Below, in pieces: positions 5,747 through 44,628 of a stretch of 64,000 nucleotides of DNA. The position numbers and the translations under genes were made by a program. The DNA comes from an uncultured Candidatus Saccharibacteria bacterium (GTDB taxonomy: Bacteria; Patescibacteriota; Saccharimonadia; Saccharimonadales; SZUA-47). The stretch spans positions 11,001 to 75,000 of the forward strand of contig CAYQPN010000004.1 in NCBI GenBank assembly GCA_964419675.1. The letters run 5' to 3'. The notes beneath the pieces are model-generated. The model saw only the letters and a program-made list of their open reading frames with translations, was not told the DNA's origin and did no database searches. Every line of letters begins with the position of its first letter. The stretch's first letter is position 1.

Positions 5747-6787
5747 TTATAGCAGTTTTTCTTGAGAAGAGCTGTTAGATTTTGGCTTTATGTCCATGTG
5801 CTGATAGGCCCTACTTGTTACTTTTCTACCTCTCGGTGTCCGTTCTAAAAAGCCTATTTGCATCAAATACGGTTCATAGAAATCTTCAACCGTACTAATT
5901 TCATCACCCAAGACTGCAGCTAACGTGTTTAAACCCACAGGTCCACCAGCATGATTTTCAATAATCGCTCGAAGTAACATTCTGTCAGCAGGGTCTAATC
6001 CCATTTTATCTACTTCAAGTAACTCTAGTGCTTTATCCGTAACCACGTCATCAATTATTCCATCACCGTTTACGTCGGCATAATCCCGAACTCTCTTTAG
6101 TAGTCGGTTAGCAATTCTTGGCGTGAGTCGTGACCTTGTTGATAATACTTCTGCAGCATTCCCTTTTAGCTCAGAGCCAAGTATTTTGGATGACCGTTTA
6201 ATAATTGAAGCAATTTCTTCCGGTTTATAGTATTCAAGTCTGTGCAACATGCCAAAACGGTCCCGTAAAGGCGCTGCTAGCGCTCCAGTACGGGTTGTAG
6301 CCCCTATTAAAGTAAACTTAGGCACATCAAGCCGTAAACTCCGTGCACTAGGCCCTTTGCCAAGCATTATATCAATTGCGTAATCTTCCATTGCAGAATA
6401 AAGAACTTCTTCGACAGAACGGTTCAAGCGGTGAATTTCATCAATAAACAACACGTCACCTTCACCCAGGTTTGTAAGTATGCTAGCTAAGTCTGCGGCG
6501 CGATCAATTGCGGGCCCGCTCGTTACGCGTATTTGTGCGCCCATTTCGTTAGCAATAATACTGGCAAGGGTAGTTTTACCAAGTCCTGGTGGGCCGTAAA
6601 GCAAAATATGGTCTAGTGGTTCAGCGCGTTTTTTAGCAGCCTGAATCGCTAGCTGTATATTTTGTTTTATTCTCTCCTGACCAATCCAGTCGCCAAAACT
6701 TGTCGGCCTTAGAACATTCTCGATCCGTTTCTCTTCTTCGTCTGGAGCATCATCCTGCGCAGGATTAACAATTCTTTCAATCGCCAT
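5747..6787 (-). CDS. ruvB: Holliday junction branch migration ATPase RuvB
   Basis: It has Walker [10 protein letters not shown], the DEIHRL motif and overall RuvB colinearity. Confidence 0.97.
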
Positions 6788-10125: not shown

Positions 10126-10146
10126 GACTCATTCTTAAGATGAGTC
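10126..10146. terminator. Bidirectional hairpin terminator
   Basis: The stem GACTCAT/ATGAGTC is flanked by an A-run and a T-run. It can terminate the plus-strand gene 9324-10061 and the minus-strand tRNA-Lys/family A unit. Confidence 0.7.
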
Positions 10147-10154
10147 ATTTTATT

Positions 10155-10309
10155 TGGAGGGCCCGATGAGACTCGGTCACCTCTGGCGACCCCTAAACTA
10201 CATTTTTCAAAACAAGTTTTGAAGAGTAGGTTTCCTTGCGAAATGCCACCGGCATTTCTCACTCATGACACCGAATGTGTCGTGACTTGAATCTCATCTG
10301 GAGTCGACC
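10155..10309 (-). repeat. Family A element, copy 1: 5'-truncated tRNA-Lys copy with an 85-nt three-hairpin module in its T-loop
   Basis: Segment 10155-10175 equals the tRNA-Lys 3' 21 nt (21/21). Segment 10261-10272 equals the tRNA variable loop plus 5' T-stem (12/12). The module at 10176-10260 is shared with the copies at 31837, 38975 and 39228. Confidence 0.75.
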
Positions 10310-30659: not shown

Positions 30660-31274
30660 ATGAATGAGATAGAAAATACCTCTAAGCGATTACTAGACCT
30701 TCAGAAGTTACTATACAATTTTTCTCAGATTAAACGAATGATTTATTTTCCTGAATCGGTCGGTAAAGGTAGAAAAGAGACAGATACTGAGCATAGTTTT
30801 CATCTAGCTATTCTGGCATGGTATGCAAGCACTCACGTACCAGGTTTAGACACCAACAAGATAGTAAAGTACTCTTTAATACATGACTTAGTAGAAATTT
30901 ATGCTGGTGATGTCATGGCAATTGGGCGAACCAAGGAAGAACAAATACAAAAATCGCTGAAAGAAAAACTGGCGTTAGAAAAATTCGGCAAACAATGGAA
31001 AGACTTCCCCGAACTTATTAGTTCTATGGAGGCTTACGAAAACCAGATTGACGAAGAGTCTAAATTCGTAAAAGCCCTAGATAAACTCACACCGATGCTA
31101 CATAACATTCTGGGGGAAGGTAATTCATGGAAAAGGCTCGATTTAGAGCGCAGTACTATTCTCTCTAACAAAGACAAGTCCACAAAAATATCAAAAGATG
31201 TTGCAAAATTATGGGCAGAGTATAAAAAACTTATCTCGAATCACCCTGATTGGTTTAATAAAGGAAAAGCATGA
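30660..31274 (+). CDS. HD-domain phosphohydrolase (YfbR-like 5'-nucleotidase family)
   Basis: It has H...HD motifs (TEHSFH, IHDLVEIYAGD). The ATG at 30660 is preferred over the ORF-track start, which overlaps tilS. Confidence 0.75.
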   Translation: MNEIENTSKRLLDLQKLLYNFSQIKRMIYFPESVGKGRKETDTEHSFHLAILAWYASTHVPGLDTNKIVKYSLIHDLVEIYAGDVMAIGRTKEEQIQKSLKEKLALEKFGKQWKDFPELISSMEAYENQIDEESKFVKALDKLTPMLHNILGEGNSWKRLDLERSTILSNKDKSTKISKDVAKLWAEYKKLISNHPDWFNKGKA

Positions 31275-31825
31275 AACACTTATACTTCGTTAGGCATGGT
31301 GAGAGCGTATTTAACGTAAAGGGTGTGGCCGCGGGGACATCTAACACACCACTTACCCCCAATGGAAAGGCCCAGGCAACTGCCCTTGGTAAAAAATTAC
31401 GCGACCAAGGAATTGTTTTTGACGTCGTATTAAGTTCACCGCTTGAAAGAGCCCACCATACTGCTTTGGAAATAGCTATGCACACAAATTATCCTACCCA
31501 CTTGATAGAACTAAATAATGACTTAGTGGAACGAAATTTCGGAGACATGGAGGCTAAAAGTCTTACTGCTGACTTTGGAATAACTGGTGAAGAATACCAA
31601 ACTAACCCCTTTTCAATCGACCATATCCCAAATGTTGAGAAAATAACCGATCTTCAATACCGAGCAAATAAAGTTTTAGAATACCTGCGCTCGCGTCCAG
31701 AAGACACGATATTGGTTGTTGGGCACGGTGCGTTTGCCCGTTCTTTGCAAAGAGCAATTATAAACGCCCCACTTACTGAGCCTGTGAGGACGCTTAATAA
31801 CGCCGAACTAGTGAAGCTGATTTAG
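31271..31825 (+). CDS. Histidine phosphatase family protein (phosphoglycerate mutase-like)
   Basis: It has the RHGES motif (LYFVRHGES) and a later VVGHGA motif. Confidence 0.85.
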   Translation: MKHLYFVRHGESVFNVKGVAAGTSNTPLTPNGKAQATALGKKLRDQGIVFDVVLSSPLERAHHTALEIAMHTNYPTHLIELNNDLVERNFGDMEAKSLTADFGITGEEYQTNPFSIDHIPNVEKITDLQYRANKVLEYLRSRPEDTILVVGHGAFARSLQRAIINAPLTEPVRTLNNAELVKLI

Positions 31826-31962
31826 GGTGAGATTTGCCCACGTTCCGCGGGCCCAGAATTTTCATGCGTCGAACAAGTTCGACCCTGAAAAGTTCTCTTG
31901 CGAAATGCCACTGGCATTTCTCACTCGCGACTTTTCGGCGTTCAAATTTACTACTAGTTACC
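31825..31962 (-). repeat. Family A element, copy 2 (downstream of tRNA-Met; 3' tRNA-like end truncated at a CDS stop)
   Basis: The module is at 31837-31922. ACTCGCGAC (31923-31931) equals the tRNA 5' T-stem region at 32019-32027. GTGAGATTTG (31827-31836) equals tRNA positions 32008-32017. Confidence 0.7.
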
Positions 31963-31996
31963 AAAATAAAATCACCCTAGAAGGGTGACCTTATTT

Positions 31997-32073
31997 TGGT
32001 AGCGGGAGTGAGATTTGAACTCGCGACCTCAGGCTTATGAGTCCTGCGCTCTAACCAACTGAGCTATCCCGCC
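31997..32073 (-). tRNA. tRNA-Met (anticodon CAU, elongator-like), CCA encoded
   Basis: It forms a cloverleaf with the CTCATAA anticodon loop, and its D-arm is identical to typical elongator Met. It has a G1-U72 pair and single mismatches in the anticodon and T stems. A hairpin terminator lies at 31963-31988. Confidence 0.8.
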
Positions 32074-32207
32074 TCGTCGAAATTACTCTTACAACAGAGA
32101 AGATTGTAACAGAATTACGTATATCTTACCAGTTAGCTTAGCCATGGAATTTGTTTCTAATTCGGTTAGCTGTAAGATTAAGATTGAATAAGGAGTCACA
32201 ATAATCT

Positions 32208-38671: not shown

Positions 38672-38732
38672 TTTGAAATCCTCCTATTATTTAGTTTTAC
38701 TGTGGTCATCCCACAATTTCATTGTAATATTC

Positions 38733-38757
38733 TGGCACTCACATGTCAAGAGTGCCA
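38733..38757. promoter_or_regulatory. CIRCE-like inverted repeat upstream of hsp20
   Basis: TGGCACTC-N9-GAGTGCCA lies about 60-85 nt upstream of the hsp20 ATG. It is a variant of the CIRCE half-sites (GCACTC/GAGTGC). Confidence 0.55.
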
Positions 38758-38779
38758 ATTTCATAAATACCTACCCCTG

Positions 38780-38808
38780 TTGACTACAGCGATACTGCCT
38801 GATATAAT
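38780..38808 (+). promoter_or_regulatory. Near-consensus sigma70 promoter for tRNA-fMet
   Basis: TTGACT (38780-38785), a 17-nt spacer and TATAAT (38803-38808) end 13 nt before the tRNA 5' end. Confidence 0.7.
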
Positions 38809-38821
38809 CATCAGGCTGTAT

Positions 38822-38896
38822 CGCGGGATGGAGCAGCGGCAGCTCGCTTGGCTCATAACCAAGAGGTCCCAGGTTCGAGTCCTGGTCCCGCTACCA
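38822..38896 (+). tRNA. Initiator tRNA-fMet (anticodon CAU), CCA encoded
   Basis: CGCGGGATGGAGCAGC...CTCATAA closely parallels E. coli tRNA-fMet. It has the C1-U72 mismatch characteristic of bacterial initiators. A hairpin terminator lies at 38905-38930. Confidence 0.9.
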
Positions 38897-38930
38897 AGAA
38901 TAAAGTCTCACATTTATGTGGGGCTTTTTT

Positions 38931-39083
38931 CTTGGTAATGTGCCAAGGCTAGAGCCTGGCCTAAGGTCACAGGTGAAAAGTGCCATTCGGCACTTTGCAA
39001 GAGAATCTTTCAGTATACAAACTTGTTTGTAACTTGAAAGTTCTGGGCCCGCGGCACGTGGGCGAGTCCTGGTCCCGCTACCA
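38931..39083 (+). repeat. Family A element, copy 3: 5'-truncated tRNA-fMet-like copy with an 88-nt module in its T-loop
   Basis: Segment 39063-39083 equals the tRNA 3' 21 nt (21/21). Segment 38964-38974 equals the tRNA variable loop plus 5' T-stem (10/11). The module is at 38975-39062. A pseudo-anticodon arm, AGGCT-AGAGCCT-GGCCT, is at 38946-38962, and its own terminator is at 39094-39121. Confidence 0.75.
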
Positions 39084-39206
39084 AAATAAATAACTCACCC
39101 TCGCGGTGGGTTTTTTATTTTAATATCGAGAGTCATGACTCGAACCTGACAGCCCGCTCTAGGCGGGCAGGTTCGCTAATTCCCCGTCCACCAATGGTGG
39201 ACAAAC

Positions 39207-39326
39207 TGGCGAATTACCATCTTTCCTGGCCACATTCTGCGGCCCCGAAACTTCATGACAGAAAACTAGTTTTCTTCAGAAGATTTCCTTGCAATGAGCC
39301 ACTGGCTCATTTCACCCGCTACCAAG
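39207..39326 (-). repeat. Family A module, copy 4 (inverted relative to copy 3), flanked by a third partial copy of the tRNA-fMet 3' end
   Basis: The module at 39228-39314 aligns over its full length with the other copies and has covarying stems. CCCGCTACCAAG (39315-39326) equals tRNA-fMet 38887-38898. Confidence 0.65.
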
Positions 39327-39384
39327 CATAAGAAATACAGCTTCCGAAAGGAAGTCATTTCTATTTGTTTGATATGATGAGGGT

Positions 39385-40041
39385 ATGAAATTGCTGCTTT
39401 GCTCAGAAGGTTTTCACACACCGAATACCATCCAAGCTTGTGTAGATCTGGTTGGTAAGCCAAAAGACAAGATTGCAATTGCCGTCATTAATGAAGCATT
39501 TGCTCCTGAAGAAAATGATAAGCGCTGGGTGTTGCATAATTTAAACTGTGTGGCAGATAATTTTCCTGGTCCATTCGACATTGTTGATTTACTTGCATTA
39601 CCGATTGACAAAGTCGAAACTCGCATAGAAAAGTGCGATGTGATTTTTGTGGTTGGAGGAAATACAGATTATCTAATGCATGTTTACAAGAAGACTGGTT
39701 TTGATAATTTACTGTTAAAGCTACTTGAAACAAAAGTATATGTTGGTAGTAGTGCGGGATCAGTAGTCATGGGGAAAAGACCTTCTAGTAAGAAATACTT
39801 GGAAGCCTTCGGTAAGGAAAAAGATTTCGGAATAACTAGCTACATGGAACTAGTAGATTTAGCTATTCGTCCACACATGGACTCAACGGAACAGCCAAAA
39901 AGACGAGAACATGTCCTCCGAGAATCATCACAGGGTCTAGATTTTCCTGTGTATGGTTTGCGAGATGACTCAGCAATCATCGTTAATGACGATAAACTAG
40001 ATCTTATAGGTAGCGAACCCTACATCATTAATCCTATCTAA
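39385..40041 (+). CDS. Peptidase S51 family (dipeptidase E-like), second paralogue
   Basis: It has GGNTDYLMHV and GSSAGSVVMG motifs and a GAGGG Shine-Dalgarno before the ATG. Confidence 0.75.
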   Translation: MKLLLCSEGFHTPNTIQACVDLVGKPKDKIAIAVINEAFAPEENDKRWVLHNLNCVADNFPGPFDIVDLLALPIDKVETRIEKCDVIFVVGGNTDYLMHVYKKTGFDNLLLKLLETKVYVGSSAGSVVMGKRPSSKKYLEAFGKEKDFGITSYMELVDLAIRPHMDSTEQPKRREHVLRESSQGLDFPVYGLRDDSAIIVNDDKLDLIGSEPYIINPI

Positions 40042-43933: not shown

Positions 43934-44628
43934 TGGTGGGGGTACCTGGACTTGAACCAGGGACCAATCGGTTATGCGTACCACTACAGCTTTTGCTGCC
44001 TCTTTCGTGTTTGTGGTCTGGACTGTCTCTTTATCCGCGTATTTGCGGATACTTGCCATACAGTCTCTACACCTTACCAGCTTTTTTATAAACTGGGCTT
44101 GGCTCGGGATTACCACTCAGCCAGTTGGCGGATAGAGGCTTCCCCGAATTTGACAAGATATACTTACTGGTTACCCATGTAAGCAGCCCTTTAACTTTTT
44201 GACTTATCTATAGTATACTTCGGTTATGAAGAACAGGTCTAACTGTGCCGTGTGTAATAAAATTCTATCCGGCAAACAAACATTGTTCTGCTCCGTGAAA
44301 TGTAAAAATACACAGCACCAATCATACCCTGCTCAAAAAAAGCGCGGATTAAATCGAAAACTCTATTTTATAAGAGAGTTAGGAGGAAAATGTTCTATCT
44401 GCGGATATGCAAAAAATATTTCTGCACTGGCATTTCACCACATACACGGTAAAGAATTTCAACTAGATGTTCGTGCACTATCAAACCGTAAAATTGAACC
44501 TATACTTGAAGAGGTCGCAAAATGTAAGTTATTGTGCAATAACTGCCACGCTGAAATTCATAACCCAAATCTAGACTTAGCCAAATTGTTAATTGAGCCG
44601 ACTGCTCTAACCACTGAGCTATACCCCC
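43934..44628 (-). tRNA. tRNA-Ile2-like (anticodon CAU) interrupted by a group I intron in the anticodon loop
   Basis: Exon 1 (44628-44596) reads GGGGGTATAGCTCAGTGGTTAGAGCAGTCGGCT. Exon 2 (43976-43934) reads CATAACCGATTGGTCCCTGGTTCAAGTCCAGGTACCCCCACCA. Joined, they form a perfect cloverleaf closely resembling E. coli tRNA-Ile2. Confidence 0.88.
43977..44595 (-). mobile_element. Group I intron (IC3-like core) in the tRNA anticodon loop
   Basis: The minus strand contains GTCAAATTCGGGGAAGCC, CCCGAGCCAAGCCC and AAGGTGTAGAGACTGTATGGCA. These match P3/P7-region strings of the Azoarcus tRNA-Ile intron as I recall it. The 5' exon ends in U and the intron ends in G. Confidence 0.8.

Follow-up and report, generated by a model that had tools for sequence, protein, structure and literature searches.

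Downstream of an intact tRNA-Met gene of an uncultured Candidatus Saccharibacteria bacterium lies a partial second copy of the 3′ end of the same gene, whose T-loop is split by an unrelated module and whose end stops short at a convergent histidine-phosphatase gene. Two questions arise: what kind of element occupies this loop, and which came first, the element or the gene end that meets it? We addressed them in the surrounding 64,000 nucleotides (GCA_964419675.1, contig CAYQPN010000004.1, positions 11,001 to 75,000, hereafter the window) and in related genomes. The module, which we call M, is a non-coding, structured sequence of ~88 nt that occurs as a family. We tentatively favor, with a likelihood somewhat short of even, the view that M is a non-autonomous, self-propagating structured element of tRNA loci.

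Layout of the tRNA-Met locus

The copy of M at this locus is the second of the window (copy 2). The locus, listed in the sense of the tRNA gene, comprises the following features.

31997-32073, minus strand: intact tRNA-Met(CAU) gene, CCA encoded, from which the flank sequences derive (ARAGORN; Rfam RF00005, 64.6 bits)
31961-31996, no strand assigned: terminator hairpin with T-runs on both sides (from the sequence; terminator-scan match at 31972-31988, plus strand)
31932-31960, minus strand: 29-nt spacer, a weak and diverged antisense copy of the tRNA T-arm (AAATTTGAAC...), inverted middle leg of a zig-zag (local alignment)
31923-31931, minus strand: GTCGCGAGT, equal to tRNA nt 46-54 (variable-loop end, 5′ T-stem, T54), which forms the 5′ strand of closing helix P0 (exact match to 32019-32027)
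31837-31922, minus strand: copy 2 of module M, 86 nt between the flanks (nhmmer, envelope of the hidden Markov model [HMM] 31836-31924; fold; family covariation)
31827-31836, minus strand: CAAATCTCAC, equal to tRNA nt 56-65 (rest of the T-loop, 3′ T-stem; exact match to 32008-32017)
31271-31825, plus strand: convergent histidine-phosphatase gene, 184 aa, whose TAG stop codon at 31823-31825 abuts the element (open reading frame [ORF] list; Pfam His_Phos_1, 2.6e-35)

All coordinates assigned to this copy in a preliminary description of the locus proved exact on re-examination. The description had also proposed that the insertion replaces T55 alone, which the exact flank matches to tRNA nt 46-54 and 56-65 confirmed. 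The chance of exact flanks of these lengths (9 and 10 nt) at fixed positions is ~4^-19, and the same register, with T55 absent and the last base of P3 being C56, recurred in 48 of 54 independent downstream units in other genomes of the wider sample described below. Chance similarity of flanks and module is excluded by these exact flanks, by the recurring register, and by the four matches of a 32-nt pattern in the window, where 0.00 were expected.

Within copy 2, helix P1 (8-11 bp) is followed by the junction GCAAG, a long hairpin P2, and P3 (7 bp with a GAA loop). The three hairpins, closed by the T-stem halves, gave a folding energy of −43.4 kcal/mol (z = −2.6), and against the family HMM the copy scored like the others (E = 7e-17). 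Fold and HMM score agree with the earlier statement that all three hairpins are kept; every M helix and every invariant base is intact. C56 doubles as the final base of P3. The loss of similarity beyond the T-stem was also borne out: after C65 the acceptor strand and CCA are gone, and the tail of copy 2 matches the tRNA at 12 of 21 positions versus 21 of 21 in copies 1 and 3. The phosphatase stop codon directly adjoins CAAATCTCAC, with one base between the end of the latter and the TAG, and the proposal that this stop cuts off the tRNA-like end holds. On the upstream side, merely 9 nt of tRNA sequence precede the module.

One part of the initial interpretation has to be revised. The T-loop is indeed split by the module, but the host is a redundant partial copy of the tRNA 3′ end, and the unit is neither an insertion into the tRNA gene nor a tRNA mimic. 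A sequence scan of the locus revealed no promoter-like site for copy 2 and no terminator of its own. The stem of the hairpin at 31961-31996 extends by pairing of the tRNA CCA with a downstream TGG, and this hairpin probably also terminates the convergent phosphatase mRNA. The antisense of copy 2 falls in the 3′ untranslated region of that mRNA.

Distribution of module M

Using nhmmer and the 32-nt degenerate pattern, we found exactly four copies of M in the window, at 10175-10262 (minus), 31836-31924 (minus), 38973-39063 (plus), and 39228-39315 (minus). The units of copies 1, 3, and 4 and one module of a different family, N, are as follows.

10155-10272, minus strand: copy 1 unit after tRNA-Lys(UUU) (10346-10422), with a 12-nt 5′ flank, M at 10175-10262, a full 21-nt tail with CCA, and a terminator at 10126-10146
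38961-39083, plus strand: copy 3 unit after initiator tRNA-Met (38822-38896), with a T-stem flank, M at 38973-39063, a full 21-nt tail with CCA, and a terminator at 39092-39112
39145-39227, plus strand: family N module in the T-loop slot of a further tail unit (GGTTCGCTAATTCCCCG plus a hairpin); motif and position are common with locus L109
39228-39315, minus strand: copy 4 of M, in reverse orientation to tRNA-fMet, flanked by a T-stem remnant on one side and by CCCGCTACCA with a terminator, from a further tail unit, on the other

The module of copies 1 and 3 likewise splits the T-loop between T54 and C56, as in copy 2, and is followed by 21 nt identical to the tRNA end through CCA and then by a terminator. 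The arrangement of copy 4 was also found in L023 and L034. Three of the four tRNA genes in the window carry a unit.

For a wider sample, the 32-nt pattern was run over contigs of one genome per species, which yielded at least 119 loci (designated by L numbers); the tallies given below rest on these. The HMM recognized at least 151 copies of M in them, from about 100 metagenome-assembled genomes (MAGs) of Saccharibacteria. Nearly all MAGs with M loci among the matches listed are labelled Saccharibacteria, Saccharimonadales, or Patescibacteria, and in the few that are labelled differently the units are of typical Saccharibacteria-like form. Judged by these labels, M is an element specific to Saccharibacteria, since almost all of the listed matches lie in Saccharibacteria MAGs.

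Fold and covariation

Covariation was analyzed in 110 distinct aligned copies of M. The family fold consists of P1 (8-11 bp) with an invariant GUGA...GCAAG frame, the long P2, and P3 (7 bp), which usually has a GAA loop. Base pairs were canonical in 98.2% of cases, compared to 25-44% after the 3′ partners had been slid by 1-3 columns. Both-sided, that is compensatory, changes were present in 19 of the 29 pairs; pair 79/94, for example, is C-G in 53 sequences and G-C in 53. When the helices were read on the opposite strand, the share of canonical pairs fell to 93.1%, and pair 82/91 is G.U in 90 of the 110 sequences; the structure therefore belongs to the tRNA-sense strand. Compensatory substitution on one strand, the criterion for a structured functional RNA, is thus found in M. 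On the evidence of the alignment, the structure is one of the tRNA-sense strand, either as RNA or as folded single-stranded DNA, which this test treats alike. As RNA, M would probably be transcribed in the tRNA sense by read-through and fold as a four-way junction.

Host sites and architecture of the units

Copies of M in the interior of contigs lay within 150 nt of a tRNA gene in 82 of 110 cases, and their orientation relative to the neighboring tRNA was the same in 88 cases and opposite in one. More than 30 isoacceptors or tRNA species serve as hosts. Within the partial tRNA copies that hold M, the T-loop was split in 64 cases, the D-arm in 12, and the anticodon loop in about 6. The flanks of M match the sequence of the local tRNA, and M is preceded by G in all cases.

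Two types of unit could be distinguished. In type A (52 to 61 units across tallies), the order is intact tRNA, terminator, spacer, the end of the variable loop with the 5′ T-stem and T54, M, the sequence from C56 through the 3′ T-stem, acceptor strand, and CCA, and a terminator. Type B (about 30-35 units) lies upstream of the intact gene; a promoter and tRNA sequence from the 5′ end as far as a loop are followed by M, a few further tRNA bases, a short stretch that carries a −10 box, and the intact tRNA. Here the split loop was the T-loop in 16 units, the D-arm in 12, and anticodon position 37/38 in 5-6. Type B units also occur in runs of two or three at intervals of 182-194 nt (L043, L078, L099, L119), and a single pseudo-copy with two modules was found in L081. 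We also found M nested at the P3 position of another M (L056, L090, L109) and inserted backwards (window copy 4, L023, L034).

Several details of these units were recorded. The tandem arrays lie at L043 7450-7990, L078 1-450, L119 4500-5300, and in L099, the repeated unit being tRNA nt 1-54 or a tail, M, and a promoter/terminator segment. The L119 array holds an N run, an assembly gap, which suggests that the repeats break assemblies. In L044, L058, L099, L110, and L009, M occupies position 37/38 of 5′ tRNA-Pro pseudo-copies upstream of the intact tRNA-Pro gene; this is the canonical intron site of archaea and eukaryotes, and in the tRNA-Pro pseudo-copies the gene is incomplete. In type B units (L043 7677-7720, L114, L119, L057, L015), the segment between M and the intact tRNA contains the recurring motif GATTYGAACC, which is a generic antisense T-loop, and TATAAT 8-13 nt beyond it; the promoter of the intact tRNA thus seems to come with the type B unit.

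The backward copies form an inverted subfamily of M with P1 GATGAGCC (window 39228-39330, minus strand; L023 ~6145; L034 ~7802). Its 5′ flank TTGGTAGCGGG is complementary to the 3′-terminal 10 nt of the initiator tRNA and resembles a primer-binding site, and it is the same subfamily that is nested inside other M copies in L056, L090, and L109. Family N (GGTTCGCTAATYCCCCG, a hairpin, and ...TCTTCC) occurs at ~39145-39227 (plus strand) of the window, between the terminator of copy 3 and the inverted copy 4, and at L109 ~6489-6545. Duplicates of tRNA tails that lack M carry other modules of 100-120 nt in L059, L064, L078, and L093, and also in L025, L027, L039, and L103; the architecture of the tail unit is therefore more general than M. 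One family among them, O, has P1 alone in common with M (GAGAACNGCCAGTGGCNGTT then TGAGTTTTCCTTGCTTGGCC...). The T-loop slot can thus hold modules that are unrelated, or partly related, to M.

The antisense arm of the units

The spacer that directly follows the terminator in type A units is a diverged antisense copy of the 3′ part of the tRNA. It begins with TGG opposite CCA and runs back to the variable loop, after which the sense copy with M follows. The mean local alignment score of this arm was 18.2 against the own tRNA versus 12.3 against other tRNAs, and 27 of 54 units were clearly self-matching. In the window the match is clear in copies 1 and 3, with a score of 25 versus 12.5 for other tRNAs in copy 1, and weak in copy 2, with 16 versus a mean of 11.6. 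In type B units, an antisense T-arm directly follows the T-loop remnant (L043: TCGAATC|GGATTCGAACCCCGC). In some type A units (L005, L059), the two terminators are identical over 42 nt.

A layout of sense, antisense, and sense is known from the tandem inversion duplications of Salmonella. The units described here likewise comprise three copies, the middle one inverted, with junctions at hairpins, which is what template switching should leave behind. From this order of tRNA 3′ end, terminator hairpin, antisense arm, and sense copy with M, we infer a signature of snap-back template switching. The principle of short-range template switching at quasi-palindromes has been described (PMC8794818, PMC4689423).

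History of copy 2

The second question, whether the element or the gene end that meets it is older, was answered by comparison with related genomes: same-length homologues and an M-free relative indicate that the end of the phosphatase gene is the older of the two. Homologues of the phosphatase likewise have 184 aa and the same K-L-I-stop end. The closest of them, encoded at locus L120 (76% identity, protein ending K-L-I-stop), lies in the same convergent arrangement with a tRNA-Met gene whose 3′ part is identical. The gap between stop codon and tRNA is 84 nt there, the terminator is a different one, and M is absent. In more distant relatives, tRNA-Met has the opposite orientation, and M is also absent. 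Because L120 has the same gene end and layout without M, the stop codon predates the unit, and the tail of copy 2 was probably lost by a deletion up to the stop. In such a history, the window lineage would have gained a type A unit at tRNA-Met, and a later deletion would have taken the ancestral terminator together with the acceptor/CCA tail, extending to the pre-existing stop codon, where the bases under selection begin. The opposite order, in which the M unit was lost in L120, is formally conceivable.

It had been suggested that the module rather than the CCA end is the conserved unit, or else that copy 2 is decaying. This alternative stands: of the 54 downstream units, 33 retain the whole tail (C56-A76) and 21 have lost part or all of it, whereas M is intact, and its helices covary strongly.

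Searches for known identity, enzyme, and promoter

A scan of the window with Rfam 15 at gathering thresholds returned three tRNAs and one intron and no match to M from any family, among them self-cleaving ribozymes, transfer-messenger RNA (tmRNA), and Y-RNA-like families, and permissive scans (E ≤ 10) of 31700-32150 and 38700-39500 found nothing on M, including Intron_gpI and ribozymes. The M pattern was absent from 2.9 million viral contigs, and blastn of M against phage and plasmid collections gave no match; an origin from phages or plasmids was rejected on these grounds. No description of M was found in the literature searched, and a survey of tRNA introns in Patescibacteria (PMC13011429) does not contain it. 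A likeness to hammerhead or hairpin ribozymes, suggested by CUGAUGA in P2, was rejected since those bases vary and are paired.

Pfam scans of about 50 ORFs of the window, which are ordinary housekeeping genes (pili, RuvABC, DnaK/J, FtsH, TilS, and others), revealed no recombinase, transposase, integrase, reverse transcriptase, or HUH enzyme. When 772 ORFs from 118 loci were clustered in search of a linked enzyme, no family was present in more than 14 loci, and ten cluster representatives, judged by eye, suggested housekeeping proteins. Guide-RNA elements (IS110 bridge RNA, TnpB/IscB omega RNA, TIGR-Tas), whose RNA is encoded beside its recombinase or nuclease gene, were dismissed on the strength of this clustering and inspection by eye. 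TIGR arrays consist of 36-nt units beside a tas gene (PMC12045711), and comparison with that description led us to reject a TIGR-Tas array as the identity of M. An element derived from an insertion sequence (IS) or a miniature inverted-repeat transposable element (MITE) was likewise rejected, with no terminal inverted repeats or target-site duplications, window copies of 58-78% identity, and a closest copy in the same genome in 3 of 38 cases.

No sigma-70-like site was found between terminator and M in copies 1-3 that could serve as a promoter of M itself. No 5′ acceptor partner for the CCA tail, as required for a minihelix or a tmRNA-like fold, was seen in the flanks. By eye, P3 gave no consistent match to the local tRNA from which it might have been derived.

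Propagation of M or service to the host

The four window copies are diverged from each other, and each has a relative of 84-90% identity in another genome, often at a different tRNA. Among 84 M copies, only 10 shared the anticodon with their nearest neighbor, versus 3.5 expected, and M is present or absent between related genomes. The lack of clustering by tRNA type or genome, the tandem units, nesting, inversion, and the M-free L120 locus point to mobility of M. If M is a self-propagating element, recombination at conserved tRNA loops and hairpins, or replicative template switching there, would spread copies from one tRNA locus to another; alternatively, a trans-acting enzyme would move it. 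Interruption of a single-copy tRNA gene would be lethal, and M would for this reason be seen solely in partial duplicates of 3′ or 5′ gene ends. A few intragenomic pairs at different tRNAs share 91-93% identity over P1 and P2, with P3 differing in a compensated manner, which suggests patchy gene conversion. In three pairs of near-identical copies within a genome (L067/L106, L025/L096, L080/L089), P1 and P2 are 97-100% identical at different tRNAs and P3 differs on both strands, again compensated; either gene-conversion tracts ended before P3 or P3 evolved much faster.

Other findings weigh against self-propagation. In same-tRNA pairs, the identity of M was 0.90 versus 0.66 for the spacer, a comparison biased by the choice of pairs with M identity ≥0.85. 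Helices are kept by compensation between close copies of the same locus, as seen in a compensated P2 pair of L005 versus L013. The tails of the 54 downstream units are bimodal: 33 are full (≤1 mismatch), 18 are cut at or before the end of the T-stem, and 3 are intermediate. This distribution suggests selection or repeated homogenization and makes a function useful to the host conceivable. The copies of one genome have long since diverged (identity of 58-78% in the window), which is not the picture of a recent MITE burst, and the ends of M itself carry neither terminal inverted repeats nor target-site duplications; a transposase was not found either. No gain event was caught between near-identical genomes, and we infer movement from the comparisons above.

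The strongest competing explanation is a serious rival, although we regard it as rather unlikely, namely that the units are host-serving small RNA genes linked to tRNA genes. Such RNAs would arise by read-through from the tRNA promoter, be closed by a helix of tRNA stem halves, and use the CCA tail as a mimic or handle for a protein that processes, modifies, or targets tRNAs. The covariation is strong and strand-specific, same-locus copies differ by compensation, and M is more conserved than the spacer, with the bias of pair choice mentioned above. Moreover, 33 of 54 units have a perfect tail next to an antisense arm that has diverged, co-orientation with the tRNA is strict (88:1), M is spread over the whole class, and three of the four tRNA genes of the window have a unit. 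However, 39% of the units, including copy 2, have no full tail, copies are nested, inverted, and in tandem, and they occupy three different loop positions. A close relative is devoid of the unit at the same locus, there is no promoter-like site between terminator and M in copies 1-3, and unrelated module families take the same slot.

An improbable explanation is that the units are miniature integrative elements or their scars, in which a tyrosine integrase crosses over in the T-loop, the repeats of the tRNA end are attL/attR cores, and M is the attP arm region. It accounts for the direct repeat of the tRNA 3′ end from T-arm to CCA (21 of 21 positions in copies 1 and 3 and full in 33 of 54 units; copy 2 keeps 10 + 9 nt), for the proximal copy that restores an intact tRNA with its own terminator, for the accretion of units in tandem, and for tails that are either perfect or truncated. 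Yet the repeats lie about 64-100 nt apart and hold terminator and spacer alone, with neither integrase nor cargo, and M interrupts the distal repeat, the supposed crossover region. M is also present in the D-arm and anticodon-loop copies upstream of tRNAs; RNA-like covariation and a conserved G.U pair are unexpected for protein-binding arms in duplex DNA; a single integrase would need to serve more than 30 tRNA species; and neither the window nor the vicinity of the loci yielded an integrase.

Very improbable, in our judgement, is a hairpin-ended single-stranded DNA element of the type derived from IS200/IS605, similar to palindrome-associated transposable elements (PATEs) or repetitive extragenic palindromes (REPs), which an HUH (Y1) transposase encoded elsewhere would insert 3′ of a short target in folded tRNA loops of the lagging strand. 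Hairpins P1 and P3 at the ends of M, the preceding G, the lack of target duplication at the edges of M, the strict orientation, and the maintenance of structure without strict sequence conservation are in line with this mechanism. The sense strand of co-directional genes is the lagging-strand template, which we also counted in its favor. Against it stand the failure to find a Y1 transposase or REP-associated tyrosine transposase in the 64-kb window or near the loci, a target defined by position (loops of three arms) with no common tetranucleotide, the strong divergence of the copies, and the partial tRNA duplications and antisense arms, which it leaves unexplained.

A tRNA intron, group I or protein-spliced, or a split tRNA assembled from two pieces can hardly be credited, and for complete genes the intron reading is refuted. 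In its favor one can cite the tRNA loops that M occupies, the canonical 37/38 site among them, together with the abundance of tRNA group I introns in Patescibacteria (PMC13011429) and the true group I intron of the window. However, none of 121 excisions gave a tRNA in ARAGORN over 35 boundary combinations, the interrupted copies have no other gene half, an intact copy of the same tRNA always adjoins, and there is no Intron_gpI or ribozyme match at E ≤ 10.

Comparison with known systems

M can be compared with several known systems. tRNA-targeting integrative elements and the integrase-less, cis-mobilizable derivatives of these, including the disruption of archaeal tRNA-Thr in the Caldiarchaeum model (PMC3293823), share with M the partial direct repeat beside an intact tRNA, breakpoints in loops, tandem accretion, and a leftover fragment. 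The M units differ from them in their size of ~190 nt without recombinase or cargo, the position of the module inside the repeated T-loop, the D-arm and anticodon sites at the 5′ side, the antisense copy between the repeats, and the RNA-type covariation. In the families of archaeal tRNA introns, for which 'intron transposition' has been described in Thermoproteales (PMC4090602, PMC4033280), related short sequences are present in the D-, anticodon-, and T-loops of many tRNAs, implying movement as for M. Those introns, however, interrupt functional genes and are cut by EndA at a bulge-helix-bulge motif, whereas M lies in truncated pseudo-copies in a bacterial host, from which it cannot be spliced to give a tRNA.

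REPs and bacterial interspersed mosaic elements (BIMEs), Rickettsia palindromic elements, Correia elements, and PATEs resemble M in being short, non-coding, hairpin-rich, multi-copy, and non-autonomous or without a known enzyme, in small genomes. M is set apart from them by its tie to tRNA loops, its co-orientation, a deep divergence with conserved structure including G.U, and the lack of visible terminal inverted repeats and target-site duplications. Tandem inversion duplications and short-range template-switch mutations at quasi-palindromes (for the principle, see PMC8794818, PMC4689423) show the same sense-antisense-sense order with junctions at natural hairpins, here terminator and T-arm, but are sporadic errors; the M architecture recurs at dozens of tRNA loci with a conserved module in the third copy. 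Eukaryotic tRNA-derived short interspersed nuclear elements (SINEs) are similar to the upstream M units, which join a promoter-bearing 5′ tRNA part (nt 1-54) to a conserved non-tRNA body and at times form arrays. Unlike for SINEs, there is no evidence for M of reverse transcription, of a tail of the poly-A or long interspersed nuclear element (LINE) type, or of dispersal from a parent tRNA.

No near analogue unites a covarying four-way-junction module with strict co-orientation, an antisense middle leg, and insertion into loops of all three arms of partial tRNA copies. The M family could conceivably be a new category of element, although we hold this with considerable reservation. Equally guarded is the proposal that M and the sibling modules N and O form a new class of structured RNAs or folded single-stranded DNAs that colonize tRNA-gene loops and keep a redundant copy of the gene end as a safe harbor. 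The sense and antisense flanks identical to tRNA might then be homing or guide sequences, or a mimic of the tRNA end acting on tRNA metabolism. Were this so, an element absent from current catalogues would have shaped most tRNA loci in a whole class of bacteria.

Should M be the element we favor, tRNA loci of Saccharibacteria, in reduced and deletion-prone genomes, would routinely carry ~190 nt of structured, maintained sequence that annotation pipelines miss. A large new structured-RNA family could be added to Rfam, accompanied by two or more sibling families; the archaeal question of how tRNA genes become interrupted and fragmented would have a bacterial counterpart; and there would be a natural system to study how an element targets the most conserved hairpins of a genome and yet spares its host. 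Partial copies of tRNAs can mislead tRNA prediction, programs that call att sites or genomic islands, and assembly, as exemplified by the L119 array at its N-filled gap.

Other features of the window

The window contains a third tRNA(CAU) gene at 43934-44628 (minus strand), whose anticodon loop is split (...GGCTCA | TAACCGA...) by a group I intron of ~619 nt (Rfam RF00028, 76 bits at 44004-44211). This gene was missed by ARAGORN and has no M unit downstream. The 35/36 intron site is known for tRNA-Asn and tRNA-Asp of Patescibacteria (PMC13011429), and the case in the window resembles it in a CAU tRNA. At ~30.6 kb, between the TilS-like and HD-domain genes, the genes change from mostly minus strand (5-30 kb) to mostly plus strand (30.6-41 kb), and the windowed GC skew turns from negative to about zero, so that this point may be a replication landmark.

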